29,337 bases of DNA from Candidatus Altiarchaeota archaeon. GTDB taxonomy: Archaea; Altiarchaeota; Altiarchaeia; IMC4; SCGC-AAA252-I15. The notes under the pieces were generated by a model that worked only from the letters and a program-made list of their open reading frames with translations, was not told where the DNA came from and ran no database searches. The position numbers and the translations under genes are program-made. Positions 3,562 through 29,129 of the stretch are shown here, in pieces. Within the stretch, counting starts at the first letter, position 1, and each line of letters begins with the position of its first letter. The DNA lies in contig JAZDMS010000012.1 in NCBI GenBank assembly GCA_043800705.1, positions 1 to 29,337 of the forward strand, read 5' to 3'.

Positions 3562-4530
3562 ATGGACGGGAAGGATTTGGACCAATTACGTGAATGGCTG
3601 GAGCTAACCAATCAGCAGTTTGACATTTTGAAGGCTTTATACACCCTCGAGCAGCGGCGGGAGGATACATCACCTATCAATATCCAAAAGGAATACACGA
3701 AGCAGTGCACGAAACGGATCGAAAGGAGCAACCTATTCACAATAATGAAGCTCCTCATGGACAAGGAACTAATCCAGAAAGCCGACCGCGGCAAATACCA
3801 GCTCAGCATCGACGGCATAAAAAAATCGGTCGATGAAAAGGACAAGATATTCAGGCAGCAGTATTCGCAATTCCAGAAGGCCAGGGAAAACCTCGACACA
3901 TTCCTCAGCGAAGTCTTGGGCCGGGAGCAAAAGCCAATGATCAGATTCCTCAGTCACAAGGAATTGTTCGCCAGCCTCTCGGAAAACCTTAAATACGCTA
4001 CCGAATATTGCGTCAGCGTAAGGGCTCCCGCACTTGTCTCCTCCCGGGCCTTCTACACACTGCTTGACCGGAAGGAGTATCATCAGACATTGGAGGAGCG
4101 CGCATTGGAAAAAAAGGAACTGCGGTTCAGGTGCCTCTCGGATTTCAATTTCAACATCCAATACGACCGGGCGAGGGCCCTTTTCAACGACGATCAGGCC
4201 GCATACTCGGAAATCATCCGCCAGATTGGCAGGCTACAGACGCTGGTGGAGGAATACGACAACCTGGAATTTCACATCCTCCCATATCCGATCGCTTTGA
4301 AGCTGTTCATGCCCGTCGTCGACCGCCCCCAAAAATGCTATATCTACCTCCCCGGATTTTCCAGCATATCCTCCCAGGGCGCGATATACATTAACTCCGA
4401 GGAGATTTCCAGGCAGGCGTACGAGATCTTCAACAAGGACTGCCTTATCAGCACTAAATTAAATGGGAACAATATCATACAAACGACCCGATCGATGAAG
4501 AAGTCACTTGACCGCCACCTGAAGAAATGA
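3562..4530 (+). CDS. TrmB-like transcriptional regulator (N-terminal winged HTH, C-terminal effector domain)
   Basis: LELTNQQFDILKAL...RSNLFTIMKLLMDKELIQK...GKY winged HTH, then a coiled coil and a C-terminal sensor-like region. Confidence 0.6.
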   Translation: MDGKDLDQLREWLELTNQQFDILKALYTLEQRREDTSPINIQKEYTKQCTKRIERSNLFTIMKLLMDKELIQKADRGKYQLSIDGIKKSVDEKDKIFRQQYSQFQKARENLDTFLSEVLGREQKPMIRFLSHKELFASLSENLKYATEYCVSVRAPALVSSRAFYTLLDRKEYHQTLEERALEKKELRFRCLSDFNFNIQYDRARALFNDDQAAYSEIIRQIGRLQTLVEEYDNLEFHILPYPIALKLFMPVVDRPQKCYIYLPGFSSISSQGAIYINSEEISRQAYEIFNKDCLISTKLNGNNIIQTTRSMKKSLDRHLKK

Positions 4531-5971: not shown

Positions 5972-7078
5972 TTACGTGGCTCTGTCGTCGAGGACTCCCC
6001 CCCATTCGACGACTGTGAATCCCTTCCTTTCGGGTGTGGCCGTTTTAGGGGCCGGCAATATGCCCCCCTCTTTCACGGGTTTGAAGTGGAATATCAGCCT
6101 GATTACCGTATCCGGCTTCGGTGATATGGCCATGCCCATGTTCTCCTCTAAAAATTCGTCGTCCAATACCCGAATCTCATAGTATTCGGATTTTGGCAGC
6201 TCTTCGAGCCAGTAATCCTTGAACTGGGCCGTTTCCTTCTTGTTCAATCCGAGCCTGGGCAGGTTGGCGTCGAACCAGGCGTCCAGATCCCCGTATTCCA
6301 CTATCCACCCCCCCGCTGGGACATCCAATCTCCTCAGCTGCGCCTCGTAGTAGAGGTAGTCGTATCTGCCGTCAATCCGTCCGCTTGGTTCAGCGGACAC
6401 TTCCCAACCGTCTGCGTATGCCGGAAGGCTTTGTGTGATGAATCCGTTCACGTTGATATGGACGCTGATGCTGGCTTTTTCCACAGGGTAGAGGTAGACT
6501 GCCGGCTTCTTCACCCCCGGCGGGAAGGCATGGCCAGCGCAGACCTTTTGAATCTGTTCTATCAGAGTTCCACGGCATCGGTACCTTTTTATCGCTGCCT
6601 CGTTTAATCCGTCTATTATGAGGCTTTTGGCCTCATCGATGCCTGGCGCGGTGCATACTGCGGACGTCGACCGCACCGTGTCGAGGCTGTTGACGATGTT
6701 CGGGCAATCCTTTGATATCGACCCTGTCATCGACTTGGAGGCCGCCTTCGGCTTCTCCATCTGTCTCAGCTCAAGGATCCTGAATGTCAGGTCGTATGCT
6801 CCGTTTTTCGGCTCGACCACTATCTCGCTCTTCTCGAATATGGAAAGTGACGGCACCTCCTCGCTGATGACGATCCTGGACGGCCTGCCCTCCGACATGG
6901 ACTCGTACACGCATCCATAATCCTCACCGCATTCGGCCATTTCATCGCCCGGGGGATGGGTATCCGGGAAAAATATTGCGGGATGGATTATGTAAACCCC
7001 GATGACGGCAACGGCCACAGCAAACAGGAGGACTACCGCTGCGATCAATGATATGATGATGGCCGCTTTCCTGTCCAT
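5972..7078 (-). CDS. Membrane-anchored conserved hypothetical protein (KP.VYLYP family C-terminal domain)
   Basis: N-terminal transmembrane helix; C-terminal KPAVYLYP...GWEV.A.P.G...YLYYEA...GL..KE...F..YW...FTVVEWGG, an uncharacterised domain I recall mainly from bacteria. Confidence 0.7.
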   Translation of the reverse strand: MDRKAAIIISLIAAVVLLFAVAVAVIGVYIIHPAIFFPDTHPPGDEMAECGEDYGCVYESMSEGRPSRIVISEEVPSLSIFEKSEIVVEPKNGAYDLTFRILELRQMEKPKAASKSMTGSISKDCPNIVNSLDTVRSTSAVCTAPGIDEAKSLIIDGLNEAAIKRYRCRGTLIEQIQKVCAGHAFPPGVKKPAVYLYPVEKASISVHINVNGFITQSLPAYADGWEVSAEPSGRIDGRYDYLYYEAQLRRLDVPAGGWIVEYGDLDAWFDANLPRLGLNKKETAQFKDYWLEELPKSEYYEIRVLDDEFLEENMGMAISPKPDTVIRLIFHFKPVKEGGILPAPKTATPERKGFTVVEWGGVLDDRAT

Positions 7079-9179: not shown

Positions 9180-9752
9180 ATGGCTCAGCTCACCGCCGGC
9201 AACATCGGGAATACCTACAACAATGAGTATGTGTTGAGCGTCGATAGGGCCAAAAAGCGCGAAACACTCCTTCTGGCGGTCCCTTTCCTGGACCGGGTCG
9301 GGAAGGAGATGGCTGACAGGGGCTACGACGCCAAAGAGGCCGTCCCCCGCCTGATGACTGCGGCGCACGACCTCGTATTCGACGTGATCGAGTATTGCGA
9401 GCCAGCCAAGGAAGGCGGCATGCCGACAATTGTCATGAAGGCTTCTGTAGACGCGGATGTGGCGAGGATATATTTCGTCTGGAACCAGAGCATGGGCGTC
9501 GACCTCATGGCAATAGCAAAAAAGGAGAAAGAGGACCTCGATGCGCTGGTGGGCGAGGGGGCTCTAAGCGCCGAACTCGACGGTAGGGCGGATTACGGAG
9601 CGACGCGGAAGGCACAGGGACGCCTCGACGGCATGAGCATGGGACTTGCCCTAGTGGCCGGATTGGCAGACAGATTCGACGAGTTCTACGATCCGGTCAG
9701 AAAACTTAAAACTGTGACCTTGGCGGTCCGGAGGCTGAAGGATGGAGCTTAA
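9180..9752 (+). CDS. Hypothetical protein with a degenerate RsbW/SpoIIAB-like (GHKL) fold
   Basis: LMTAAHDLVFDVIEY resembles the N-box helix; GMSMGLALVAGLADRF...TVTL resembles the G2-box tail. Abuts or overlaps both AcnX genes. Confidence 0.5.
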   Translation: MAQLTAGNIGNTYNNEYVLSVDRAKKRETLLLAVPFLDRVGKEMADRGYDAKEAVPRLMTAAHDLVFDVIEYCEPAKEGGMPTIVMKASVDADVARIYFVWNQSMGVDLMAIAKKEKEDLDALVGEGALSAELDGRADYGATRKAQGRLDGMSMGLALVAGLADRFDEFYDPVRKLKTVTLAVRRLKDGA

Positions 9753-10184: not shown

Positions 10185-10871
10185 CTAGTTAGCCTTCTCC
10201 ATCAGCGGGCAGGCTGTCACCGTCGGCTGCCCGGGGCACTCCTTGACGATGCAGCCGTTGCCGGCAGTATATGTGTTGCAGGCTTGGCTGCATACGAAGC
10301 CGACCTTCTCGTCGTTCCCGTCTATCGTCGTCGTCCCGTATCCTCCGCAACTTGACTTCCACGTCACAGTCTCGCCCTTGCCGCCTGAGACCTTCATGCT
10401 GCAGCTTGCCGTACCCTGCGCCGGGCAGACTTTCCCTTCCTTGCAGCCTGTAGGGTGGGCGGTACATCCGCCAAGTTCGCTGTAGCATTTCTGCGGCTGG
10501 TAGGTGTTCTGGAATATGCACGTCACCTGTTCTGCGACCTGCGGGCACTCCTTCGTCTCGACGCCGTTGCATACCGTCACCTTGCATCCGTTCTCGTCGA
10601 CGTATGATGTGCATAAGGTCTGGCACTGCTTCATCGAGAAGCCGTCGTCGCAGACTATGCTAATACAGCCCCCATAGGACGTCTTCTGGCAGGCTATGGG
10701 CCTTACCGGCATCGTCTCTGTCGGCATCGGCCTTGGCACCGCCGATATGGCCGCGCTCTGGCCGATGTTTGCCATCGTCTCTTGCACTGCTTTGTTCGTC
10801 TGCGCGAACGCGTAACCAGACGAGACCAAACCCACTATGGCCAAAATGGCCAATAAGCTGTTTCTACCCAT
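10185..10871 (-). CDS. Secreted cysteine-rich repeat protein
   Basis: Signal peptide; repeated C..Y...(N/G)GC....C.G.....C modules; AGGTGA RBS. Confidence 0.75.
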   Translation of the reverse strand: MGRNSLLAILAIVGLVSSGYAFAQTNKAVQETMANIGQSAAISAVPRPMPTETMPVRPIACQKTSYGGCISIVCDDGFSMKQCQTLCTSYVDENGCKVTVCNGVETKECPQVAEQVTCIFQNTYQPQKCYSELGGCTAHPTGCKEGKVCPAQGTASCSMKVSGGKGETVTWKSSCGGYGTTTIDGNDEKVGFVCSQACNTYTAGNGCIVKECPGQPTVTACPLMEKAN

Positions 10872-10982
10872 ATTGTCACCTTACAAATCGTCTGATAGGA
10901 TATCCTCGCCGCTTTATAAGGTGCTGTCGGTTTTGTTCGGTTTTGGCCGAAGAAAAAAAGGACCGCGTAAGAGGGCTTTCCC

Positions 10983-11915
10983 CTAAACCCCTATCTTGGT
11001 CCTGTAGGCCTCATATCCTTCCTTCTCGATGGCATTCGCGACCTTCTCCTGCAGGACTTTCCCGGGAGTGAGGGCGATCATGAGGCCTCCCCGTCCGGTG
11101 CCTGTAAGTTTCGCGCCGAGTGCGCCGTTTTCATTCGCCGCATCGACGAGTTCTTCGAGTTCGTCGCAGCTGAGGCCCATCTCCTGGAGCAGTTCGTGGT
11201 TCTTGTCCATGAGGTAGCCGACGGCTTTCATGTCGCCCTTAAGCAGTGACGCCTTGGCTGCGGCCGCTATCTCGGAGTAGTCTGAGAATATTTTGTCGTA
11301 TTTTTTTCTGTCAGCCTCTCTCGCATTTTTCACGTCCTCCACGACCTCCTTCGTCGATGACGTCAGTCCTGTGTTGCCGAGGACGATCTCGACGGGTTTC
11401 GGCATCCTGAGGAGGTCCATCGTGTTGGCGCCGCCGGAGAGGTTCTTCTGAAACCATATGAGGCCGCCGTATACGGCTGCCGTATTGTCTATGCCCGAGG
11501 GCTTGCCGTGGTATCCTTTCTCGCCTTCGTATGCGACCTCGTTGATCCTCGGCTCGTCGTAGCCGAGGCCGAAGTGCTCGTTCAATGCTCGGGCGATGGC
11601 AGCCGCGGAGGCTGCCGACGCTCCGACGCCGGATGCGGCCTTGAGGTCGCCTGCGAGCGTGACCTTGAGCGGGGTCTTTTCGATGTCGATGCCGCAGGCC
11701 TCGTATATGAGTTTGTTGGACTGCACCTGCTCGTCGTATTTCTCCTTCTTGTATCCTGGCGTGGCGGGCCTTTCGTCTACGAGCTCGTATTTGACGGAGT
11801 CCTCGACTGTGGCGGTGGTCTTGCTGGCGAGCGCGGACGCTATCGCAGGAAATCCGTAGACGACGAAGTGTTCCCCGAACAGTATGGTCTTCCCGTAGCC
11901 GATGCCTGATGACAT
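10983..11915 (-). CDS. mvk: Mevalonate kinase
   Basis: GKTILFGEHFVVYG, SGVGASAA, HGKPSGIDN and GAKLTGTGRGG GHMP-kinase motifs. Confidence 0.93.
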   Translation of the reverse strand: MSSGIGYGKTILFGEHFVVYGFPAIASALASKTTATVEDSVKYELVDERPATPGYKKEKYDEQVQSNKLIYEACGIDIEKTPLKVTLAGDLKAASGVGASAASAAAIARALNEHFGLGYDEPRINEVAYEGEKGYHGKPSGIDNTAAVYGGLIWFQKNLSGGANTMDLLRMPKPVEIVLGNTGLTSSTKEVVEDVKNAREADRKKYDKIFSDYSEIAAAAKASLLKGDMKAVGYLMDKNHELLQEMGLSCDELEELVDAANENGALGAKLTGTGRGGLMIALTPGKVLQEKVANAIEKEGYEAYRTKIGV

Positions 11916-11947
11916 GGTAGATACAATCTGCGGGCGAAGATAAAAAT

Positions 11948-12163
11948 TCAGAGGTATTCGCCTAGCCTTCTTTGCTTCATCCTCTGCCTGCAGACCCTAC
12001 AGAGCTTTAGGCCTCTCTTTTCGGCCTTTTCGCGGGTTTTGAACCTTAGCTGGTTTTCCTTCAGTATCTGCTTCTGGTGGTGGCATCCGGCGCCTGTGGC
12101 GTGGAATAGGCCGTTTTCGGATTTGAGGCTTGAGATGTAGATCTGTTTCGCCAACGCCGCCAC
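11948..12163 (-). CDS. Small Ada-type zinc-binding-like protein with a C-terminal PIP-box-like motif
   Basis: FH.....C.....I...N...F.TRE.A...G...C..C pattern; ends QRRLGEYL; GTG start. Confidence 0.55.
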   Translation of the reverse strand: MAALAKQIYISSLKSENGLFHATGAGCHHQKQILKENQLRFKTREKAEKRGLKLCRVCRQRMKQRRLGEYL

Positions 12164-12188
12164 CTTGGAGTATATTGTGAACGTCCTA

Positions 12189-13142
12189 TTAAATGGGGTG
12201 GGCCCCTTCTGCGACCTTGTAGTGGCGGTATTTGAGGTTGTTGTCTTTCAGTTCGCGGGTGACCTCCCGGCTGTATTGGTGGAGTGTGAAGACGTAGACT
12301 GCGCTTCCGCCTGCGACGGTCCAGTATGCGGGGATCTTCCTCTCCCTCATCCCGAGGACGAGGTTGATGGCCTCCCCCATCTGCGGCTTTATCACGTCCA
12401 TCCCCATCTCGCTGAACATGGTGTGGACGGTCCTGGCTTCGGCCTCTGCTATCTTCATGAAGCCCAGAAGGTCGTTGCCGTCGACGAAGCTTTGCAGGTT
12501 TCTCAGGCGTTCCTCGACCTGCTTGGTTCGCTTCGGATGGTCCTTGTGCCTCGTGACCATGAGGTGGAGGTTGTCTGCGGGGAAACGCTTCAGTTCAGGG
12601 AACGGTATCGCGTATATCATGAGGTCGTTGAAGAATGAGGCGTCCTTCACCTGGTGCGCCCTGATGTTGCCTTTGGCGTCGACTTCGCATATTGAAAGGC
12701 CTCCTATGAGGCTACGGTATGCGGTCTCGCTGACGGGTTTGGCGAGCTCTATGAGGCGCGTCATCGGCGAGCCGAGTTCGAGGAGGTCGTCGACGGCGGA
12801 AACGAGCGCCGCCGCGCCGGAATCGCTCGAGCCTGTTAGGATGTCGTGGTTGACGGACTGCACGGATGCTCCTGTTCGTTCCGCGGCGAGGGGCAGCATG
12901 TCCCTGATTATCTCGACGGCTGCCAATGCGCGACCTTCCGCCGGGGCTGCTCCGTTGAGGCTGAATGCGGGCTCCTCATCCGTGAGGGAGGCCGATGTCT
13001 CCGTCTTTGCGTTGTGGTGTATGTCGGTGACCGCGATGCTGGCGTGGTTGTGGGCCGATATCCGAAGCCGGGAATCCCTGAACCCTTCCGCGAACACGAT
13101 AGGCAGGCCCGGATAGGCCACCGCCTTGGCGTGCGCTTTCAT
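12189..13142 (-). CDS. Diphosphomevalonate decarboxylase superfamily member, mevalonate-3-kinase-like
   Basis: AYP start, ILTGSSDSGAAA, SETAYRSLIGGL, R.P.D..H and VAGGSAVYV resemble Thermoplasma mevalonate-3-kinase as I recall it; lacks the NIALIKYWGK and DAGPN motifs of true decarboxylases. Confidence 0.75.
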   Translation of the reverse strand: MKAHAKAVAYPGLPIVFAEGFRDSRLRISAHNHASIAVTDIHHNAKTETSASLTDEEPAFSLNGAAPAEGRALAAVEIIRDMLPLAAERTGASVQSVNHDILTGSSDSGAAALVSAVDDLLELGSPMTRLIELAKPVSETAYRSLIGGLSICEVDAKGNIRAHQVKDASFFNDLMIYAIPFPELKRFPADNLHLMVTRHKDHPKRTKQVEERLRNLQSFVDGNDLLGFMKIAEAEARTVHTMFSEMGMDVIKPQMGEAINLVLGMRERKIPAYWTVAGGSAVYVFTLHQYSREVTRELKDNNLKYRHYKVAEGAHPI

Positions 13143-21078: not shown

Positions 21079-21551
21079 CTTATCCCCTCTATCATGGCTT
21101 CGAACTTGTGGCACATTTCGTGGAACGTCTCATAACTATGCCTAAGTCGCTTAATATTCTCCCTCTTGGCTGTCGCATCCGTGCTTTTGTCTTCTTTTAA
21201 GAGGTTTTCAGCCTCCGCCAATATCTGGATCATTGACTGGGCCTCCCGCCTTGCGGATTCCATCTTTTTCCTGTGGGCCAGGACGAGGTCGTGGACGCAT
21301 TCGAAGTATATCTTCTTGCTTCCGGGCTTCTTGAATTTTCGGACGTCCATGGTCCGCTCGATTATCTCAAGCGTGTTGCAGACGGTGGAGATGCTATAGC
21401 CAGTCTTCTTCGATATCTCCTGCATCCCAAGCGGCTCATTGGAGAGGAATAACGAGATGTATATCCTCATCACCGTCGGGTTGAAGCCCTGCCTCTCAAA
21501 GAGCTTCACGACCTTTTCCACGAGTTCGGCCTCGGCGAATTTACCTGGCAT
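21075..21551 (-). CDS. GbsR/MarR-type HTH transcriptional regulator
   Basis: G......RIY..LFLS.EPL.M.EI...TGYSISTV...L...V.K...PG.KK.YF pattern. Confidence 0.85.
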   Translation of the reverse strand: MPGKFAEAELVEKVVKLFERQGFNPTVMRIYISLFLSNEPLGMQEISKKTGYSISTVCNTLEIIERTMDVRKFKKPGSKKIYFECVHDLVLAHRKKMESARREAQSMIQILAEAENLLKEDKSTDATAKRENIKRLRHSYETFHEMCHKFEAMIEGIR

Positions 21552-21623
21552 TTTTGATATACTCTATATACTATATATTCTAAATATTACGTTTTTCCTA
21601 TATATAAAGTATATATCTGGGTA
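21552..21623 (-). promoter_or_regulatory. AT-rich promoter region of the ABC operon
   Basis: Very AT-rich with several TATA tracts (TTTATATA on the minus strand near 21600-21608) in a GC-rich genome. Confidence 0.5.
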
Positions 21624-22580
21624 TCACGCCAGTTCTGCCCCCCTATACTCTTCCATGTGGCTTTTGAACCAGGCTATCGTGCCCTCCAGTCCCTCATCCA
21701 GGCCGAGATTGGGGCTCCATCCGAGCGCTTTCTTCGCCTTTGTGTTGTCTGCGACCCAGCATTCCGTCTCGAATCCTGGAGTCGGCCTCCGTCCGAAGAG
21801 GAGCCTGGAATCCGGCCTGATGAGGCCGTGTATCCTCTTTGCGACCTCCTTGACCGAGTGCTGGCTGCCTGACCCAATGTTCAATACGCTCCCCCCTATC
21901 CTCTTGGCCTTCATCGCCTTGATGAACGCCTCGACGACGTCGTCGACGTGGATGAAGTCCCTCGTCTGGCCGCCTGAGGTGAGCTCGACGTCCCTGCCGG
22001 CGAGGCAGCCTGCGATCACCGTTGGCACGAGCCTCATCGGCTCCTCCCATGGGCCGTATGCGGAGAAGAGCCTGAGGGTCGCGATGGGTTTGCCTTCAGT
22101 AACCGCGGACGTCCTGCAGAACAGTGTGGCCGCCGCCTTCGTGACCCCGTACATGTTGACCGGCTCCAGGACGTCGTCTTCCGTCATGGGGTGGTCCTTT
22201 ATCCCGTATTCGGAGGAGCTGCCTGCGTTGATGAACGAGTCGTAGGAACGGTCGGCTGCGGCGTTCACCAGGTTAACCGTGCCGAGGAAGTTGGTGCCGA
22301 TCATCCTGGCCTGGTCCTTCTGCGTCCGGGGATAGCTCCCGTAGGCCGCAAGGTGCAGGATATGGTCTGGCTCGGCCTCGTCGATAATCATCTTCAGTGC
22401 CCTTGCCTCCCCGAGGTCGCTATCGTGCCTGATTATGTTGTTCAGGATGTCCCGTATCCTCCAGAGTGAGGTCTCCTTCCTGAGGATGGTGTGGACCTCG
22501 TATCCTTCGCCGATGAGCCTCCTTGCGAGGTTGGCTCCGACGAATCCGCCGGCTCCGGTGATAAGGACCCTCTTTACCAT
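21624..22580 (-). CDS. NAD-dependent epimerase/dehydratase (extended SDR)
   Basis: ITGAGGFVG, GSSSEYG, YGVTK and TRDFIHVDD motifs. Confidence 0.92.
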   Translation of the reverse strand: MVKRVLITGAGGFVGANLARRLIGEGYEVHTILRKETSLWRIRDILNNIIRHDSDLGEARALKMIIDEAEPDHILHLAAYGSYPRTQKDQARMIGTNFLGTVNLVNAAADRSYDSFINAGSSSEYGIKDHPMTEDDVLEPVNMYGVTKAAATLFCRTSAVTEGKPIATLRLFSAYGPWEEPMRLVPTVIAGCLAGRDVELTSGGQTRDFIHVDDVVEAFIKAMKAKRIGGSVLNIGSGSQHSVKEVAKRIHGLIRPDSRLLFGRRPTPGFETECWVADNTKAKKALGWSPNLGLDEGLEGTIAWFKSHMEEYRGAELA

Positions 22581-22669: not shown

Positions 22670-24535
22670 GTGAAGTATTTCCCGTATTCCCGGGTAAGAG
22701 GAGGGCAGTCAGAGTTCCTGCAGGACTGCCATGAGGCCGTGGGAGCCGGGGCGGCTCTCGTAGCACATGCTCCCACCGGCATCGGCAAGACCGCCGCGGT
22801 CCTGTCGGCCGCGATCGAGCACGCGCTCAAGGAGCACAAGACAGTATTCTTCCTCACGCCGAAGCACACCCAGCATACCATCGCTGTCGACACGGTCAGG
22901 AGGATATCGGAGAAGCATAGTCTCCACCTCTGCCTCGTGGACATCATCGGCAAGCAGTGGATGTGCCCCCACAAGGTCCATGACCTGAGCTCGAGGGAGT
23001 TCAACGAGTTCTGTCGCACGCAGAAGAAGGACGAGCTGTGCGAATACTACAACAACACCCGCAAGGCCAAGACTACCGCGAAGGCGCAGGAGGCGATCAC
23101 GCGTATAATCGCCCGCCCGATGCACAACGAAGAGGTCCAGATGACATGCGCGCTCAACAAGCTATGCCCCTACGAGGTCCTTCTGGAGGCGGGCCGCAAG
23201 GCCGACGTCGTCGTATGCGACTATTTCCACATATTCAGCCCACCCGTTCGCAGAGCCTTCCTGAACAAGCTCGGCAAGACCGTGGAGGACTCGATACTAG
23301 TCGTCGACGAAGCCCACAACCTCCCCGACCGGATCCGCAGCATCATGAGCCACCGGATCGGGACATACTCCCTGGAGCGGGCTGCCAAGGAGGCCAGCAC
23401 CCTGAACTTCAGGCAGCTTTCGGAGGAGCTGATAGGGGTGTCGAAGTCCATGAAGAAGCTAGCAAGGAAGATAAAACCCTACCAGGAGAGGTACGTCGAC
23501 AAGCGCGAACTGGTCGACGAGGTCGTCAGCGTCTCGGGGATGGAATACAAGGAATTCGCAGCCGAGGTCGAAAGTCTCGGCGCGCAGGTGCTGAAGATCC
23601 CCGGCAGGTACCGCAGCCACGCGGCGAACATCGCCAGGTTCCTCGAGGAATGGGTCGGGGAGGACATGGGGTTCACGAGGATCATGAACAAGGACGAGCA
23701 CGTCAACATCGCGAGGAAATGCCTGGACCCCAGCCTGTCCTGTGCGGATGTTTTCTCCACAGCGCATTCGGCGATACTGATGAGCGGGACGCTGACCCCC
23801 TTGAACATGTACTCCAGCGTGCTGGGGCTGAAACCGGAGCGGACGATGGAGAGGGCCTACAGGTCGCCGTTCCCCAAGGAGAACAGGCTCACGCTCCTTG
23901 TCCCGGGGCTCACGACGAAGTTCGCTGAACGGACCCAGCACATGTACGACAAATACGTCTCCACAATCTCCTCGATGCTTACGACGATCCCGGGCAACGT
24001 CGCCGTATTCTTCCCCTCATACCATCTCCTAACCGACATCGGCCTCAGGGTGAGGACGAAGAAGGAGCTGGTCGTCGAGCGGCAGGAGATGACGAAAGAG
24101 GAGCGGCTGAAGCTGTTCCACCGCCTGGTCCAGCTTCAGGGGGCGGGCGGCGGGGCCCTCATGGCCGTCCAGGCGGGCAGCTTCTCGGAAGGCCTCGACT
24201 TCCCGGAAAACATGCTCGACGCCGTCATAATAGTCGGACTCCCCCTGGAGAGGCCTAATCTGGAGACCCAGGCATTGATCGACTACTACGACTTCAAGTT
24301 CGAGCGCGGCTGGGACTTCGGCTATATCTACCCTGCAATGAACCGTTCCCTGCAGGCCGCAGGCCGCTGCATAAGGAGCGAGACAGACCGGGGAGCCATA
24401 ATCCTCCTCGATGAGAGGTTCAAGTGGGGGAACTACAGGAAATGCTTCCCCTCTGATTTTGAGTTTATTGTGACAGAGACTCCTGAGAAGTATCTGAAGC
24501 GGTTCTTCGAAACATCAGGTATGTGCCACCTTTAG
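22670..24535 (+). CDS. xpd: XPD/Rad3/DinG family Fe-S DNA helicase
   Basis: APTGIGKT, Fe-S cysteines (CP...C...CEYY...CPYE), DEAHN, MSGTL, FFPSY, SEGLDF and QAAGRCIR motifs. Confidence 0.92.
   Translation: MKYFPYSRVRGGQSEFLQDCHEAVGAGAALVAHAPTGIGKTAAVLSAAIEHALKEHKTVFFLTPKHTQHTIAVDTVRRISEKHSLHLCLVDIIGKQWMCPHKVHDLSSREFNEFCRTQKKDELCEYYNNTRKAKTTAKAQEAITRIIARPMHNEEVQMTCALNKLCPYEVLLEAGRKADVVVCDYFHIFSPPVRRAFLNKLGKTVEDSILVVDEAHNLPDRIRSIMSHRIGTYSLERAAKEASTLNFRQLSEELIGVSKSMKKLARKIKPYQERYVDKRELVDEVVSVSGMEYKEFAAEVESLGAQVLKIPGRYRSHAANIARFLEEWVGEDMGFTRIMNKDEHVNIARKCLDPSLSCADVFSTAHSAILMSGTLTPLNMYSSVLGLKPERTMERAYRSPFPKENRLTLLVPGLTTKFAERTQHMYDKYVSTISSMLTTIPGNVAVFFPSYHLLTDIGLRVRTKKELVVERQEMTKEERLKLFHRLVQLQGAGGGALMAVQAGSFSEGLDFPENMLDAVIIVGLPLERPNLETQALIDYYDFKFERGWDFGYIYPAMNRSLQAAGRCIRSETDRGAIILLDERFKWGNYRKCFPSDFEFIVTETPEKYLKRFFETSGMCHL
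24427..24509 (+). repeat. xpd 3' end, in-gene copy of a 150-bp-offset duplication
   Basis: 67/83 nt identical to 24577-24659; 13 of 16 differences are synonymous. Confidence 0.92.
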
Positions 24536-24573
24536 GTGGCACTCGCGGCGCGTGTGCACGGAGCGAGCCGTGC
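24523..24573 (+). repeat. Structured interspersed element, copy 1 (9-bp inverted repeat + 31-bp conserved motif)
   Basis: GTGCCACCT-TT-AGGTGGCAC followed by TCGCGGCGCGTGTGCACGGAGCGAGCCGTGC, 29/31 identical to 28013-28043. Confidence 0.85.
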
Positions 24574-24576
24574 TGC

Positions 24577-24667
24577 GGGGAACTACAGGACATGCTTCCC
24601 GTCGGACTTCGAATTCATAGTGACCGAGACGCCGGAGAAATACCTGCTGAGGTTCTTCGGGGCCTAG
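24577..24667 (+). pseudogene. Displaced second copy of the xpd C-terminal coding segment
   Basis: Encodes GNYRTCFPSDFEFIVTETPEKYLLRFFGA*, versus GNYRKCFPSDFEFIVTETPEKYLKRFFETSGMCHL* in the gene; its TAG overlaps the dapF stop codon. Confidence 0.85.
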
Positions 24668-25536
24668 AATGCGTAATTGCCCTGGAAGGTCTCCTCCGCC
24701 CCCCCTATAAGATATGCCCTGCCTATGTCGCCCATGGAGCCTTCTAGCTGAACCCTTATGTCCCCGCCCCTGGCGTGAAAAAGGATCTGCTTGAAAATGT
24801 CCGCCTTCCCGTTCAGTACGGCCGCCACGGCCGATGCGCATATCCCCGTCCCGCATGCGAGGGTCTCGTCCTCGACGCCCCGTTCGAAGGTCCTTATCTT
24901 GAACTCGTTTTCTGCGACCTTCTGGACGAAGTGCGCGTTCGTCCCGCTTGGGAAAAGTATGGTGTGGTTCCTTATCAGGGCGCCGTTTCTTCTGACATCC
25001 GCCTTTTCCACATCCCTTACGAAGACGATCGCATGGGGGTTGCCCATGCCGACGGACGTTATGTCGAATTCCTCGTCTGCGATCCTTACGTGCTGGTTTA
25101 TGAACGTCTCATCCGGCTTGCCCGCCACCTGGGCCTCGCCGCGCAGTACCTGCGGCCTGCCCATGTCGACCTTCTCTTCCGTGGCCTTGTCGGCTTCGAT
25201 GGTGAGTTCGATGGTCTTGATCCCCGCCATGGTCTCGACGTCGATCTTTCGCTTCCTGAGCTTGCAGTGCTCGTACAGGTATTTGGCAAGGCATCTTATG
25301 CCGTTGCCGCACATCTCGGCCCTTGAGCCGTCGGGGTTGTAGAAGACGAAGTTCGCGTCGTGGGTCTTGGACTTCTGGGCGAATATCGCTCCGTCTGAGC
25401 CGATGCCGAAGTGCCTGTCGCAGGCCTTCTTGACGAATTCGGGCTTTCTCCCCTCAGGAATCCTCTCCTCATCCCATTCGTCCACGACTATGAAGTCGTT
25501 GCCTGTGCCATGCATCTTCGTGAATGCGATATCCAT
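24664..25536 (-). CDS. dapF: Diaminopimelate epimerase
   Basis: KMHGTGNDF, EMCGNGIRC, MGNPH and ERGVEDETLACGTG motifs. Confidence 0.95.
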   Translation of the reverse strand: MDIAFTKMHGTGNDFIVVDEWDEERIPEGRKPEFVKKACDRHFGIGSDGAIFAQKSKTHDANFVFYNPDGSRAEMCGNGIRCLAKYLYEHCKLRKRKIDVETMAGIKTIELTIEADKATEEKVDMGRPQVLRGEAQVAGKPDETFINQHVRIADEEFDITSVGMGNPHAIVFVRDVEKADVRRNGALIRNHTILFPSGTNAHFVQKVAENEFKIRTFERGVEDETLACGTGICASAVAAVLNGKADIFKQILFHARGGDIRVQLEGSMGDIGRAYLIGGAEETFQGNYAF

Positions 25537-25653
25537 GTGCGCTTACCCTGTATACTGGGCCAATATACGGTTTTAAAGTATATATTCACGGATCGGCGGG
25601 GGATCCCGTATTTTAAGCTCTGCTGCTTATTAAGGTTTCAACGGTTGGTTTAC

Positions 25654-27975
25654 ATGGTCAAATGCCTTCTGGACGCGGATTATGTGACTAAGGACGAGAA
25701 GCCCGTGATCCGGTTATTCTACAAGACCGAGGCCGGCCAGCTCATCGAGGAGGTCACGGGCTTCGAGCCATATTTCTATGCGCTTCCGAGGGCCGATATC
25801 GGCGCTTTGGAGGATTCCATGAAGGGGCTTGCAGGCGTAGTCCGCGTTGAGCGGCTCAGGCTCCTGGAGAAAGGCAAGGAAACCGACGTCTTGAAGGTAG
25901 TCCTCAGGCAGCCGAAGGACGTCCCCCAATTGAGGGATTCAGTCGCGAGGCTCCCCACGGCCGCAGGCTACAGGGAGGCCGACATACCGTTCGCACGCCG
26001 TTACATCATCGATTCTGGCATCGTCCCGATGGAGCATTCGGAGGGGGTGGAGCTGAACGTCGCAGCCGTCGACTGCGAGATCGCCGCCGACGGCGAGCCG
26101 GATGCGTCGCGCCATCCCCTATCGATGATAAGCTACGCAGACTCGAAGGGATTGAGGCGGGTGTGGACCTTCGAGCGGAAGAATCCCGGCCTCGACTACG
26201 TCGAGGTCGTCAAGGACGAGGCTGCGATGCTCAGGAAGCTCGTGGACACGGTGCGCGAGCAGGGGATAGACATACTCACCGGATACAACACCGACAACTT
26301 CGACTTCCCCTACTTCGAGGGGCGGGCCGCCAAGCTCAGGGTCGAGCTGGACTTCGGCTCCGACGGAAGCAGGCTTAGGATGGAACGCAGGGGGATGAAC
26401 AACGGGGCAAGGATCGTCGGCAGGCCTCATGTGGACATGTACCCCGTCTGCAGGCAGGTCTTCAACCTCCCCAGATACCAGCTCGAGGACGTCTACGCGA
26501 GCCTCTTCGGGGTCGAGAAGCTGGACATCAAGGTCAGCGAGATATCGGAGTTCTTCAACGGCACCGACCCGAAGAAGTTCGCGATACTCTGCGAGTACTC
26601 CCTCTCCGACGCGGACGCCACCCTCAAGATCGCGCTGAAGATGCTGCCCCTCATGTACGAGATGTCGAAGATCATCCGGCAGCCGCTGTATGAGACGTCG
26701 AGGATGCGAAGCGGCCAGCGTGTGGAGCACCTGCTCGTCGAGGAGGCCCACCGGCAGGGGGTCCTGGTCCCCAACCGCCCCTCGGAGGAGGAGTTCGACG
26801 AGCGGGAGGACGCACCCTACGAGGGGGCCTTCGTCGTAGACCCGAAGAAGGGGATACACGACAACATCGTACACTTCGACTTCACGAGCCTGTATCCGAG
26901 CATCGTCATATCCCACAACATCGACCCGACCACATTGGACTGCGAATGCTGCGAGGCATCCGCGCCGAAGGCCCCCAACGGCCACTGGTTCTGCACGAAC
27001 GCGAAGGGCTTCATACCGGAGGTCCTCGGGTGGCTTCTTCAGAAGAGGGCTGAGGTCAAGAACCGGATGACGGCCGAGGCGGACCCGGAGCGGAAGAAGA
27101 TTCTTGACGTTGAGCAGCAGGCGGTGAAGCTCCTTGCAAACAGCATGTACGGCTATTACGGCTTCCAGAGGGCCAGGTGGTACTGCAGGGAATGCGCGGA
27201 GGCAATCGCAGGCTGGGGGCGGGAATACATACAGGAGACGATCAAGGTGGCCACAGCCGAGGGTTTCGAGGTCATATACGGCGACACTGACAGCGTCTAC
27301 CTAACAAGGGACGACCTCAAGGACACGAAGGAGATCATAAGGCGGGCGATGGAGTTCCAGAAAAAGATAAACGACAGGCTGCCTGAGGCGATGGAGCTGA
27401 AGTATGAGGACTTCTACCTCAGGGGGATATTCATCACGAAGAAGAGGTACGCTGTCATAAACCAGCAGGGGAAGATGACGGTCCGCGGGCTTGAAACGCG
27501 CAGGAGGGACTGGTGCGAGGCCGCGAAAGGCACCCAGCAGAAGGTATTGGACGCGCTTCTGAAGGACCGGGACCCCGAGAAGGCCGCGAACGTCGTCAAG
27601 GAGATGGTGCAGCGGATAAAAGCCGGCAACGTCCCGCTCTCGGAGCTGGCGATCAACACGCAGATGACCCGAAACCTGGGGGGATACGTAACAGAGGGCC
27701 CGCATGTGGCGGCTGTGCGCAGGGCGATGAAGGAGGGGGTGGACTTCAAGCAGGGCGACATCATCACCTACATCGTCACGAAGAAGGGGGGCTCAAGCGG
27801 GAACATCGGCGAGAAGGCCGTCATCATCGACCATGTGAAGGAGGGGGACTACGACGCAGACTACTATATCAACAACCAGGTCCTGCCCGCGGTCATGAGG
27901 ATCCTCGAGGCCTTAGGCTACCAGGAGGACGAGATGAAAGGCAAAGGGAAACAGATGACTTTAGGTGACTGGTAG
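25654..27975 (+). CDS. polB: Archaeal family B DNA polymerase
   Basis: LDADY N-terminus, ExoI DCE, GYNTDNFD, DFTSLYPS, KLLANSMYGY, YGDTDS, KKRY, YYINNQVLPA and C-terminal PIP-like QMTLGDW; start moved to ATG 25654. Confidence 0.96.
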   Translation: MVKCLLDADYVTKDEKPVIRLFYKTEAGQLIEEVTGFEPYFYALPRADIGALEDSMKGLAGVVRVERLRLLEKGKETDVLKVVLRQPKDVPQLRDSVARLPTAAGYREADIPFARRYIIDSGIVPMEHSEGVELNVAAVDCEIAADGEPDASRHPLSMISYADSKGLRRVWTFERKNPGLDYVEVVKDEAAMLRKLVDTVREQGIDILTGYNTDNFDFPYFEGRAAKLRVELDFGSDGSRLRMERRGMNNGARIVGRPHVDMYPVCRQVFNLPRYQLEDVYASLFGVEKLDIKVSEISEFFNGTDPKKFAILCEYSLSDADATLKIALKMLPLMYEMSKIIRQPLYETSRMRSGQRVEHLLVEEAHRQGVLVPNRPSEEEFDEREDAPYEGAFVVDPKKGIHDNIVHFDFTSLYPSIVISHNIDPTTLDCECCEASAPKAPNGHWFCTNAKGFIPEVLGWLLQKRAEVKNRMTAEADPERKKILDVEQQAVKLLANSMYGYYGFQRARWYCRECAEAIAGWGREYIQETIKVATAEGFEVIYGDTDSVYLTRDDLKDTKEIIRRAMEFQKKINDRLPEAMELKYEDFYLRGIFITKKRYAVINQQGKMTVRGLETRRRDWCEAAKGTQQKVLDALLKDRDPEKAANVVKEMVQRIKAGNVPLSELAINTQMTRNLGGYVTEGPHVAAVRRAMKEGVDFKQGDIITYIVTKKGGSSGNIGEKAVIIDHVKEGDYDADYYINNQVLPAVMRILEALGYQEDEMKGKGKQMTLGDW

Positions 27976-27981
27976 TTTTTT
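27976..27981 (+). terminator. Oligo-T archaeal terminator candidate after polB
   Basis: TTTTTT immediately after the TAG stop codon. Confidence 0.45.
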
Positions 27982-27990
27982 CTAGTGCAT

Positions 27991-28043
27991 GAGGGGTCTA
28001 AGACCCCTCGATTCGCTGCGCGTGTGCACGGAGCGAGCCATGC
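27991..28043 (+). repeat. Structured interspersed element, copy 2 (9-bp inverted repeat + 31-bp conserved motif)
   Basis: GAGGGGTCT-A-AGACCCCTC, GAT, then TCGCTGCGCGTGTGCACGGAGCGAGCCATGC. Confidence 0.85.
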
Positions 28044-28091
28044 GATGATGTGTAGGGTAACGGCAAGCAGATGACTCTTGGGGATTGGTAG
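28044..28091 (+). pseudogene. Displaced second copy of the polB C-terminal coding segment
   Basis: Reads DDV*GNGKQMTLGDW*, versus DEMKGKGKQMTLGDW* in the gene; 28056-28091 matches 27940-27975 at 28/36 nt, mostly synonymous changes. Confidence 0.8.
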
Positions 28092-28139
28092 CCAAAAGTT
28101 TACAAGATGTGACGTCGATTTTTCAGATGACATATTCCC

Positions 28140-29129
28140 CTATGGTGCTGCGCTTACCGTCGGCTGTTTCGCTACGCCTAGTAGTTTGATCCTGAATTTC
28201 AGGTTTTTTCCGGCCAGTTCGGGGTTGAAGTCGAGGGTCAGGTTCTGGCTGTTGACGTCTATGACCTTCGCAGGCCCCATGAGGGTGACCACTTTCTGGC
28301 CCGTTTGGGCTTCGATCTGTATGATGATGTCGGTGTCCGTGCCGTAGACCTGGGCTGGGCCGAAGACCGTGTTCAGTGTGGCGTTCCCCTCAGGCATGTA
28401 CCTGAAGGTCACGATGTCGTTCGAGACCGCCAAGACCTTCATCGGCCACGTGAGCTCGAACTCGCTTTTGTTCTCAAGTATGAATTCCAAGCCTATAATC
28501 GGCTCTTTGCCTATGTCCTGCCTGAACTTTTCGACCGTGACGTTCTGGACGATCGGGCTCCTTTGCTGCTTCTCGACGACCTGTATGTACCTCTTGTCAG
28601 GCTGGCCGTATCCCTTCTCTGGCGAGACGAGGACTTCCTTATCCTGTCCGACCCTCATGCCTTCCACAGCCTCTTCGAAGCCGGCTATGAGGCTGCCATA
28701 CCCCAATGTGAATGTGAGCGGTTCATATGTCCTCAGAGGGTTCTGTATCCCGCTATCTTTCGCAATCGTCAGGTTCGAGGAGTCAAAGACCGTCCCGTTT
28801 TCCAGGAACCCGGTGTAGTCCACTGTCACTATGTCGTTCTTTTCCGCCAGGTTGGCGTTTTTCTCTTTTGCCGGATTTATTGTGGTCGTTGTCGTGGCCG
28901 TCTCTTTCCCAGGCTCCTGGCTCATCATGACTACCATGCCCGCGACCGCGACGAGCACGATTACCGCCCCGATTATCAGCTCCTTCGGCATGGGCTTATT
29001 TGAGTCCTTCTGGGGTGCGGCAGCATGCGTTTGCGCAATTTTCCCCTCTGCGGAGGGCTTGCTCTTGCGTTTCCTTGCCTTGCTGCCTTTTGCCGCCGCC
29101 TCGATTGGGATATTTTCCTCTTCGCCCAT
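28140..29129 (-). CDS. Membrane-anchored FKBP-type (SlyD-like) peptidyl-prolyl isomerase
   Basis: VDYTG.LENG.VFDSS, LI.GFEEA..GM.VG, P..GYG and LDFNPELAGK.L.F motifs; N-terminal basic region, transmembrane helix and Thr tract. Confidence 0.9.
   Translation of the reverse strand: MGEEENIPIEAAAKGSKARKRKSKPSAEGKIAQTHAAAPQKDSNKPMPKELIIGAVIVLVAVAGMVVMMSQEPGKETATTTTTINPAKEKNANLAEKNDIVTVDYTGFLENGTVFDSSNLTIAKDSGIQNPLRTYEPLTFTLGYGSLIAGFEEAVEGMRVGQDKEVLVSPEKGYGQPDKRYIQVVEKQQRSPIVQNVTVEKFRQDIGKEPIIGLEFILENKSEFELTWPMKVLAVSNDIVTFRYMPEGNATLNTVFGPAQVYGTDTDIIIQIEAQTGQKVVTLMGPAKVIDVNSQNLTLDFNPELAGKNLKFRIKLLGVAKQPTVSAAP

Follow-up and report, generated by a model that had tools for sequence, protein, structure and literature searches.

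A gene-less hairpin element and an imported-looking xpd gene end in an archaeon of the Altiarchaeota

The 3' end of xpd, the DNA-repair gene for a Rad3/XPD helicase, was analyzed in a stretch of 29,337 nucleotides (nt) of contig JAZDMS010000012.1 (the window) from a Candidatus Altiarchaeota archaeon. The live gene ends in an 83-nt sequence that returns as a second copy downstream, next to the end of dapF, and the two copies enclose a short hairpin-forming element that carries no gene. This observation at xpd is confirmed. We consider it probable, at about 0.58, that the original 3' end of xpd has been displaced by the live one, and that a 150-nt unit with a xenologous gene end was inserted by a homology-guided route; the direction of transfer and the pairing-and-joining step at xpd are what we infer. 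The interpretation that an initial annotation had given of the locus, namely a foreign C-terminus with the native end lying downstream, is partly supported. The assembly examined (designated G000) is a draft of 43 contigs and 2.0 Mb that is 87.5% complete.

The two ends of xpd

The live xpd open reading frame (ORF; 22670–24535, plus strand, as are all features here except dapF) encodes 621 amino acids (aa), ends in ...KRFFETSGMCHL* and was assigned from its Pfam domains (Helicase_C_2, E value 3e-39; DEAD_2; HBB). The protein is 67–73% identical to orthologs of the same genus. Repeat search and alignment gave a direct repeat of 83 nt (24427–24509 and 24577–24659) with 67 of 83 positions identical (81%) and a start-to-start distance of 150. 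The best local score at this repeat was 47.8, as compared to 6–13 at repeat-free loci with the same scoring and arbitrary offsets. Both copies start, without a mismatch, with the 14-nt core GGGGAACTACAGGA (24427–24440 and 24577–24590). The in-gene and downstream repeat, its spacing of 150 and the identical core, as first described, are all present in the sequence.

Native-type codon usage stops at the first copy of the core, as judged from the repeat and the codons. The part that follows (24441–24509) is an imported-looking, xenologous copy of the xpd end with T-ending codons and ortholog-consensus residues, as assessed from codon usage, silent and replacement differences and orthologs (see below). 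Next comes a filler of obscure origin (24510–24522), which is without homology to the native end and codes for part of the new tail (ETSG..). Hairpin A (GTGCCACC-TTTA-GGTGGCAC, 24523–24542) was found by folding, and the live stop codon TAG (24533–24535) spans its loop and 3' arm. The right end of the element (24543–24573), delimited by family matches and covariation, consists of the linker TCGCGGC, the invariant GCGTGT and hairpin B (GCACGG-AGCGAG-CCGTGC, 24556–24573). The second copy of the core begins 3 nt past hairpin B and opens the putative displaced native end (24577–24667), which was assigned from the repeat, the reading frame, the codon usage and synteny. The live end reads GNYRKCFPSDFEFIVTETPEKYLKRFFETSGMCHL and the downstream copy GNYRTCFPSDFEFIVTETPEKYLLRFFGA. 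The 67 nt between the repeat copies contain no ORF; the live ORF is intact up to its new stop, and its working end comes from the insert. The convergent dapF gene (diaminopimelate epimerase; 24664–25536, minus strand) was identified from its ORF and the Pfam family DAP_epimerase (E value 4e-59). The interlock of the two genes that had been pointed out is found at CTAG (24664–24667), where the displaced xpd TAG (24665–24667) and the dapF stop (reverse complement of 24664–24666) have TA in common. Immediately past the live TAG, and in the same frame, lies an ORF of 43 codons with a GTG start (24536–24667); readthrough or re-initiation at 24536 would append or yield a peptide in which the C-terminal motif of XPD recurs.

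The codon usage of the two copies was compared over the 23 codons past the core. The fraction of third positions occupied by G or C (GC3) was 0.57 in the live copy, 0.83 in the downstream copy and 0.84 in the body of xpd; the fraction occupied by T (T3) was 0.35, 0.00 and 0.06, respectively. The contrast noticed at the outset is thereby put in numbers. Among 563 sliding 23-codon windows of the xpd body the minimum GC3 was 0.65 and the maximum T3 0.17, and none was as T-rich as the live copy; the foreign-type composition is restricted to 24441–24509. Over 27 aligned codons the copies differ at 16 nt, which are made up of 12 of 27 third positions and 4 of 54 first and second positions. The proportions of silent (pS) and replacement (pN) differences are 0.77 and 0.05, that is, silent divergence is near saturation, and transversions make up 7 of the 12 differences at third positions, as read from the alignment. 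Judged by this pattern, the differences are of the kind that separates distant orthologs rather than the product of recent drift. The live xpd end looks imported, and its foreign composition, claimed earlier from codon endings, is borne out by both the codon bias and the values of pS and pN.

The surroundings of the downstream copy were compared with those in 19 relatives. Ten of these have a convergent dapF no more than 1.5 kb from xpd, and in G001 (same genus) and G007 the ends of the two genes overlap in the way seen here for the downstream copy and dapF; relatives have an uninterrupted xpd–dapF junction. To judge from these genomes, the tight junction is the ancestral arrangement. Because the downstream copy has body-like codon usage and abuts dapF as in relatives, its identification as the displaced native end is supported. 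The tails past ..FF in 120 database orthologs are mostly 1–3 residues long, which the native GA (2 residues) fits, and an ETSG... tail occurs in none of these 120. The proposal that the downstream copy is ancestral holds up on its codons, on its stop-to-stop contact with dapF and on its typical 2-residue tail. A crossover within the 14-bp core would remove 150 bp and leave ...RFFGA*, as had been proposed; this is arithmetically true. A 28-mer of the native copy had no match in metagenome_contigs. Three public read runs hold 0.04 of the sampled words, and the contigs there cover only conserved parts of the xpd and dapF genes of relatives, none of them over 24488–24823. A diversity-generating retroelement was considered and rejected: A stands at 4 of the 16 differing positions in either copy, so the differences are not adenine-specific, and the genome has no RVT_1 match.

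The comparison with orthologs, which had been suggested as a check, gave a divided result. At the protein level it favours the upstream copy: the two K residues of the live copy are the commonest at their positions (seen in 106 and 43 of 120 orthologs), whereas the downstream copy has T where orthologs have K, R, Y or E, and L where they have K, E, R, Q and others (T in 0/120, L in 0/120). Codon usage and the junction favour the downstream copy as the native one. The displaced copy has no stop or indel, and we read T and L as probable early decay, under relaxed constraint, of a displaced and unused native end. These residues also bear on a different explanation, in which the insert is old and selected and the downstream copy still functions through read-through of TAG or re-initiation at GTG 24536. 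The 150-nt spacing preserves the frame, the ORF at 24536–24667 begins immediately past TAG, the displaced copy is uninterrupted, and selection on both copies would give silent-only divergence. We nevertheless regard a functional downstream copy as very improbable. Neither T nor L is found in any of the 120 orthologs, the spacing departs from multiples of 3 at other loci, and the displaced copy of polB (see below) has an in-frame stop. Furthermore, selection in place leaves the foreign codon bias of the live copy unexplained, and TAG is an ordinary stop here, which ends xpd, dapF and polB.

The hairpin element and its junctions

In its predicted fold the xpd insert forms two hairpins side by side (−34.1 kcal/mol, z −2.05). 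When the whole assembly was searched, a second copy of 24543–24573 came up at 28013–28043, which is 94% identical; these are the only two copies in the 2.0 Mb with up to 5 mismatches allowed. The exact 20-mer GCGTGTGCACGGAGCGAGCC is present in 20 stretches of other public genomes, of which 19 are archaeal, mostly labelled Altiarchaeales/Altiarchaeota, and 1 is a chance bacterial match. With up to 2 mismatches, this 20-mer matched 53 times, in 17 of the 49 genomes of the order, and the reversed-pattern control matched once. The copy number is 1–7 per genome. The 50 nt TGCCACC...CCGTGC of the xpd insert (24525–24573) are identical to an element next to a transfer RNA (tRNA) gene in genome L045.

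The alignment of 35 copies revealed four parts: an upstream hairpin A, frequently preceded by TAGTGCGT; the linker (C/T)CGCNNC; the invariant GCGTGT; and the hairpin NNACGG-AGCGAG-CCGTNN. The signature of the element is GCGTGT followed by NNACGG-AGCGAG-CCGTNN with paired outer bases, and the xpd insert matches it exactly at 24550–24573. The two outer pairs of hairpin B vary with compensation (GC/GC, GA/TC, CA/TG, TA/TA, GG/CC and TG/CA). Of all cells in this comparison 98.1% were paired and 16 were compensatory; none of 500 shuffles was as high, and slid controls were 21–52% paired. The covariation was not selected for, because the 3' partners fell outside the search pattern. By these sequence criteria, the element is a gene-less member of a family that is conserved across Altiarchaeales. 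Searching Rfam over 24300–28300 with E values up to 10 gave no relevant match; a single weak match, to sR49, falls within polB.

The distribution of the element also bears on the possibility that the locus is an assembly or binning chimera of two co-occurring strains. The copies resemble alleles of two lineages, and the genome is an incomplete draft of many contigs. A chimera is hardly credible, since a shared core of 14 nt is unable to join assembly paths, a conserved element sits between the copies, and many assemblies made independently show the layout, among them a contig of 1.39 Mb (L054) and the genome of a single cell (L052).

The contexts of the element were collected as 40 distinct ones, one being the chance bacterial match. 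A flanking direct repeat, with the right copy starting 0–6 nt past hairpin B, was present in 20 of the 40; in these 20 contexts the repeats are 15–83 nt long and the copies lie 60–160 nt apart. A complete tRNA gene terminus lies within 0–3 nt of the element in 7 of the 40, either the 3' end of a gene on the opposite strand or the 5' end of a gene on the same strand. The targets with repeats comprise the trpE end at the trpE/trpG overlap (3 genomes), several tRNA 5' parts, xpd and polB. On the left side of the insert there is variable filler, frequently T-rich or made of other hairpin modules. With a variable left filler and a fixed right junction, the element has one sharply defined end. In L039, L047 and L053 the element lies in the ATGA overlap of trpE and trpG, with a repeat of 48–62 nt and the same first base (ATGAACAAGG); the two copies are identical in one genome (L039, 48/48) and about 25% diverged in another. 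The xpd gene of relatives has a displaced end 60–95 nt past the live stop in 3 of 19 (G005, G022 and G027, from two families), with inserts that hold other hairpins and have two further left boundaries. At L086 (1560–1800, genome G016) a tRNA gene has an intron-like insert of about 100 nt that bears its own hairpin; a gene for a 403-aa integrase lies on the 3' side of this tRNA gene, and the hairpin element with a copy of the tRNA 5' end on the 5' side.

An insert that restores a gene end between direct repeats with an identical core could also be the scar of a larger, integrase-borne element at the xpd 3' end, the interior of which was later deleted. The frequent vicinity of tRNA genes and the integrase gene next to the element-bearing tRNA in L086 are consistent with such an origin. 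That integrase lies, however, on the opposite side of the tRNA from the element. In the 20 repeat-flanked contexts the copies are so close (60–160 nt) that no gene fits between them, and no partial tRNA copy (at least 12 nt exact) was found 3–14 kb to the left of 6 elements, 3 of which abut a complete tRNA as predicted by aragorn. The 241-nt region had no match in phage or plasmid collections, and the 20-mer had none in viral contigs. Overall, we think it improbable that the locus is an integrase scar.

Other gene ends and the divergence of their copies

The second element of the window lies at the end of the gene for a family-B DNA polymerase (polB). The live polB 3' end (..DEMKGKGKQMTLGDW*, 27928–27975) forms the left copy of a second gene-end repeat. 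It is followed by the element (27976–28043), composed of a T-run, hairpin A (27991–28009), GCGTGT (28020–28025) and hairpin B (28026–28043), and directly past hairpin B by the displaced polB end (28044–28091). The latter spans the last 16 codons and is decayed, as it reads DDV*GNGKQMTLGDW* with an in-frame stop. The xpd and polB elements are 3.4 kb apart in the same orientation and flank dapF and polB. In G001 the polB end has a repeat of 48 nt with the same left boundary and a related insert that begins with CTAGTGCAT and continues with a hairpin; a further 28 genomes that were inspected show no repeat at the polB end. As listed, the polB ORF starts at GTG 25411 and encodes 854 aa, about 80 more than in relatives (772–792 aa); it overlaps the 5' end of dapF. 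The true polB start is probably further downstream, near the AT-richer 25550–25700.

At least 7 further gene ends in G000 have this layout. They belong to genes on contigs C33 (2359–4071, repeat region 4000–4202; and 10637–12199, repeat region 12163–12361), C18 (33654–34886, repeat region 34805–35078), C10 (6499–8016, repeat region 6351–6544), C26 (21614–22696, repeat region 21470–21703), C30 (34449–35534, repeat region 34345–34490) and C34 (9012–9320, repeat region 9274–9496). The two pairs on C33 (67 nt and 37 nt) are 100% identical and both start with GTACATGAG. These gene ends of G000 carry other hairpin families, for instance a hairpin-TTCGCCAGC-hairpin type with about 12 copies. This second family has a stem-loop with a GAGCGAAGCGAAT-like loop, then TTCGCCAGC and a stem-loop closing with GCTG; its sites include C19:20125, C23:482 and 636, C35:50130 and C25:46840, and the motif GAGCGAGC is common to both families. 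A genome-wide statistic of repeats between gene tails and downstream sequence was not above the in-gene control because of repeat proteins; we therefore claim the instances and not an enrichment.

The excess of silent over replacement differences is not confined to xpd. In 8 of 8 clearly diverged pairs tested, pS was much higher than pN: 0.77 and 0.05 for xpd, 0.95 and 0.12 for polB, 0.83 and 0.10 for C26, 0.35 and 0.06 for C18, 0.67 and 0.03 for C30, 0.64 and 0.03 for C34, and, in relatives, 0.77 and 0.11 for xpd of G022 and 0.33 and 0.05 for xpd of G005. The C10 pair differs at 2 nt (pS 0.12, pN 0.03), and three pairs (the two on C33 and xpd of G027) are identical. In the 7 differing pairs of G000, GC3 was lower in the live than in the displaced copy in 5 and equal in 2. 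A switch between the serine codons AGC and TCG in the C18 pair argues for long separate evolution under selection. In 5 of 11 pairs the spacing cannot be divided by 3 (116, 172, 142, 136 and 140 nt), and a sixth, of 161 nt, is likewise out of frame.

In another explanation, the hairpin element alone inserted in place near the xpd stop and duplicated 83 nt of native target. The live copy would have diverged only afterwards, either by a short patch of gene conversion from foreign DNA, with the conserved element as its anchor, or by a locally elevated mutation rate under the filter of selection. The identical pairs, to which the trpE copies of L039 belong as well, speak for such a course. Long and variable target duplications over gene starts and stops have been described for bacterial restriction-modification genes (PMC2853133), and the conserved 50 nt of the element would serve as an anchor for recombination. 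In-place duplication is possible for the identical pairs. For xpd we consider it unlikely. Neutral drift would hit all codon positions, but the differences fall on 12 of 27 third positions and on just 4 of 54 first and second positions; the host codon bias would persist, but T3 in the live copy is 0.35 and not close to 0.06; and a conversion patch requires a donor with the element at the same site of xpd, and none was found.

Proposed insertion route and relation to known systems

The insertion of a xenologous gene end at xpd may be pictured as follows. A unit of 150 nt would have entered at the 14-bp core, consisting of the last ~23 conserved xpd codons in xenologous form, 13 nt of filler and the ~50-nt two-hairpin element, which would provide the new stop codon. 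The native end would have been shifted 150 nt downstream, where it would still abut dapF and have begun to decay. The foreign-type DNA added at xpd extends from the core at its left edge to hairpin B at its right edge, and the native copy is intact from the core on. The mobile unit would be the gene-end piece together with the filler and the element, i.e. the element plus whatever flanks it on the left, and it would pair by homology with the same gene end in the recipient. Two routes may be envisaged. The unit could be a small circle that integrates by a Campbell-type single crossover at the core. Alternatively, a single strand that ends at hairpin B could pair with the recipient gene end in a displacement loop (D-loop), after which a nick in the recipient strand at the left edge of the D-loop would allow both ends of the incoming strand to be ligated to it. 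Joining at the left edge of the homology would retain the recipient's own copy right behind hairpin B. Either route would result in an exact start of the right copy past hairpin B, a variable repeat length, identical pairs if the donor belongs to the same population, and wholly foreign left copies next to wholly native right copies. On this view, identical repeat pairs would go back to transfers inside one population and diverged pairs to transfers from distant relatives, and the tRNA-abutting copies without a repeat may be primary insertions.

Several observations weigh against an import by this route. The comparison of composition rests on 23 codons. A 22-mer of the live copy, used to look for a donor, had no archaeal match in genome_contigs (3 chance bacterial ones) and 0 in metagenome_contigs, and none of the 19 relatives agrees with the live copy at more than 17 of 27 third positions. 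An identical core of 14 nt is very short for ordinary homologous recombination, and a homology-guided step does not account for how the element first enters a new gene. The repeat boundaries at trpE/trpG and at polB match exactly between genomes, which could reflect old inheritance with gene conversion rather than repeated import. As to enzymes, G000 has one tyrosine recombinase, which is XerA-like (C17:487–957), and this 87.5% complete genome gave no match to the RVT_1 reverse transcriptase, the Y1 transposase (PF01797) or TnpB (PF07282). Among the 49 genomes, the occurrence of reverse transcriptases (6), Y1 transposases (17) and tyrosine recombinases (30) does not track that of the element (17).

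Tyrosine recombinase genes of about 270–300 aa lie, in many metagenome-assembled genomes across the order, about 450–750 nt from a contig end. This position suggests a neighbouring repeat that breaks the assemblies.

A more general proposal is tentative, and we would sooner doubt than accept it: Altiarchaeales may harbour an undescribed kind of mobile DNA, in which tiny, structure-defined hairpin elements move together with the upstream gene end and are spliced in by homology, without a recombinase encoded by the element. Recoded ends of protein and tRNA genes would then be steadily exchanged among distant relatives, with the native ends left behind as fossils, and a nuclease or ligase step of the host would act at the conserved hairpin B to set the end of the cassette.

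The element was compared with known systems. The e14 element and phage 21 integrate at the 3' end of E. coli icd and restore the gene, and genomic islands are found at tRNA 3' ends. In design these are the nearest to the xpd locus, which resembles them in the live end supplied by the insert, the mainly silent differences, the unused native end downstream and the identical core. It differs in that the insert is 67 nt without a gene, the repeat length ranges by site between 15 and at least 83 nt, a cognate integrase was not found, and the targets include numerous protein genes that are unrelated to one another as well as tRNA genes, at either end. REP/BIME, Correia-type and MITE repeats are short, gene-less, hairpin-forming and multi-copy sequences just behind genes, and the element is like them in all these respects. 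Unlike those of MITE and REP sequences, its ends (GTGCGT... and ...CCGTGC) are not inverted, and its repeats of 15–83 nt are not a fixed short duplication; moreover, one end is defined and the other variable, there are 1–7 copies per genome, and G000 has no RAYT/Y1. Integron gene cassettes carry attC hairpins, and their insertion does not duplicate the target. As a comparison of workings only, the element is similar to attC in having a structure-defined hairpin at the 3' side, a junction at the foot of the hairpin and a compensated outer stem; in contrast to integrons, there are no R and L boxes, IntI or attI platform, and the target is duplicated. The 178-bp repeats at E. coli tyrT/rtT each re-create the 3' end of the tRNA. 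In these, too, successive units without a gene follow a tRNA gene and every unit brings its own copy of the tRNA end, but the organism and the sequence are different, and protein-gene ends or recoded copies are not known for tyrT/rtT.

Insertion with long target duplication is said to have been described by Nobusato in 2000. For bacterial restriction-modification genes, the paper by Furuta, Abe and Kobayashi (2010; PMC2853133) reports target repeats of 46–423 bp that often lie over gene starts or stops. In footprint this mode of insertion is the nearest, and it shares with the present element the long, variable repeats, often over a gene start or stop, the lack of a transposase or inverted repeats and the obscure mechanism. 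Of the features given there, a repeat of more than 30 bp is found in the 83-nt repeat at the xpd end; near-identity of the copies is seen in the two C33 pairs and in xpd of G027, but not at the xpd locus of the window (81%, pS 0.77). The inserts in PMC2853133 are kilobase-sized bacterial restriction-modification genes, whereas here a tiny archaeal hairpin element is concerned, with silent differences near saturation in many pairs. The element also stands apart in being gene-less, in its conserved covarying hairpin and in its occurrence at tRNA termini besides protein-gene ends. The element in PMC3293823 is a 1.8-kb, recombinase-bearing element at a tRNA and differs from the one described here. 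Our searches of the literature turned up no account of hairpin inserts that lack a gene and come with silently recoded copies of gene ends; the restriction-modification inserts with long target duplication come nearest.

The xpd locus provides a clear and datable example of a wider and apparently undescribed remodelling of gene ends. Genes such as xpd, polB, trpE and those of tRNAs are essential, and end pieces from other lineages in them affect phylogenies, the annotation of starts and stops, and estimates of horizontal transfer. Each event would have left a dated fossil in the form of a displaced native end. If the hairpin element does direct homology-guided insertion with no enzyme of its own, it would represent a new route for the remodelling of gene borders and a natural example of short-homology knock-in.

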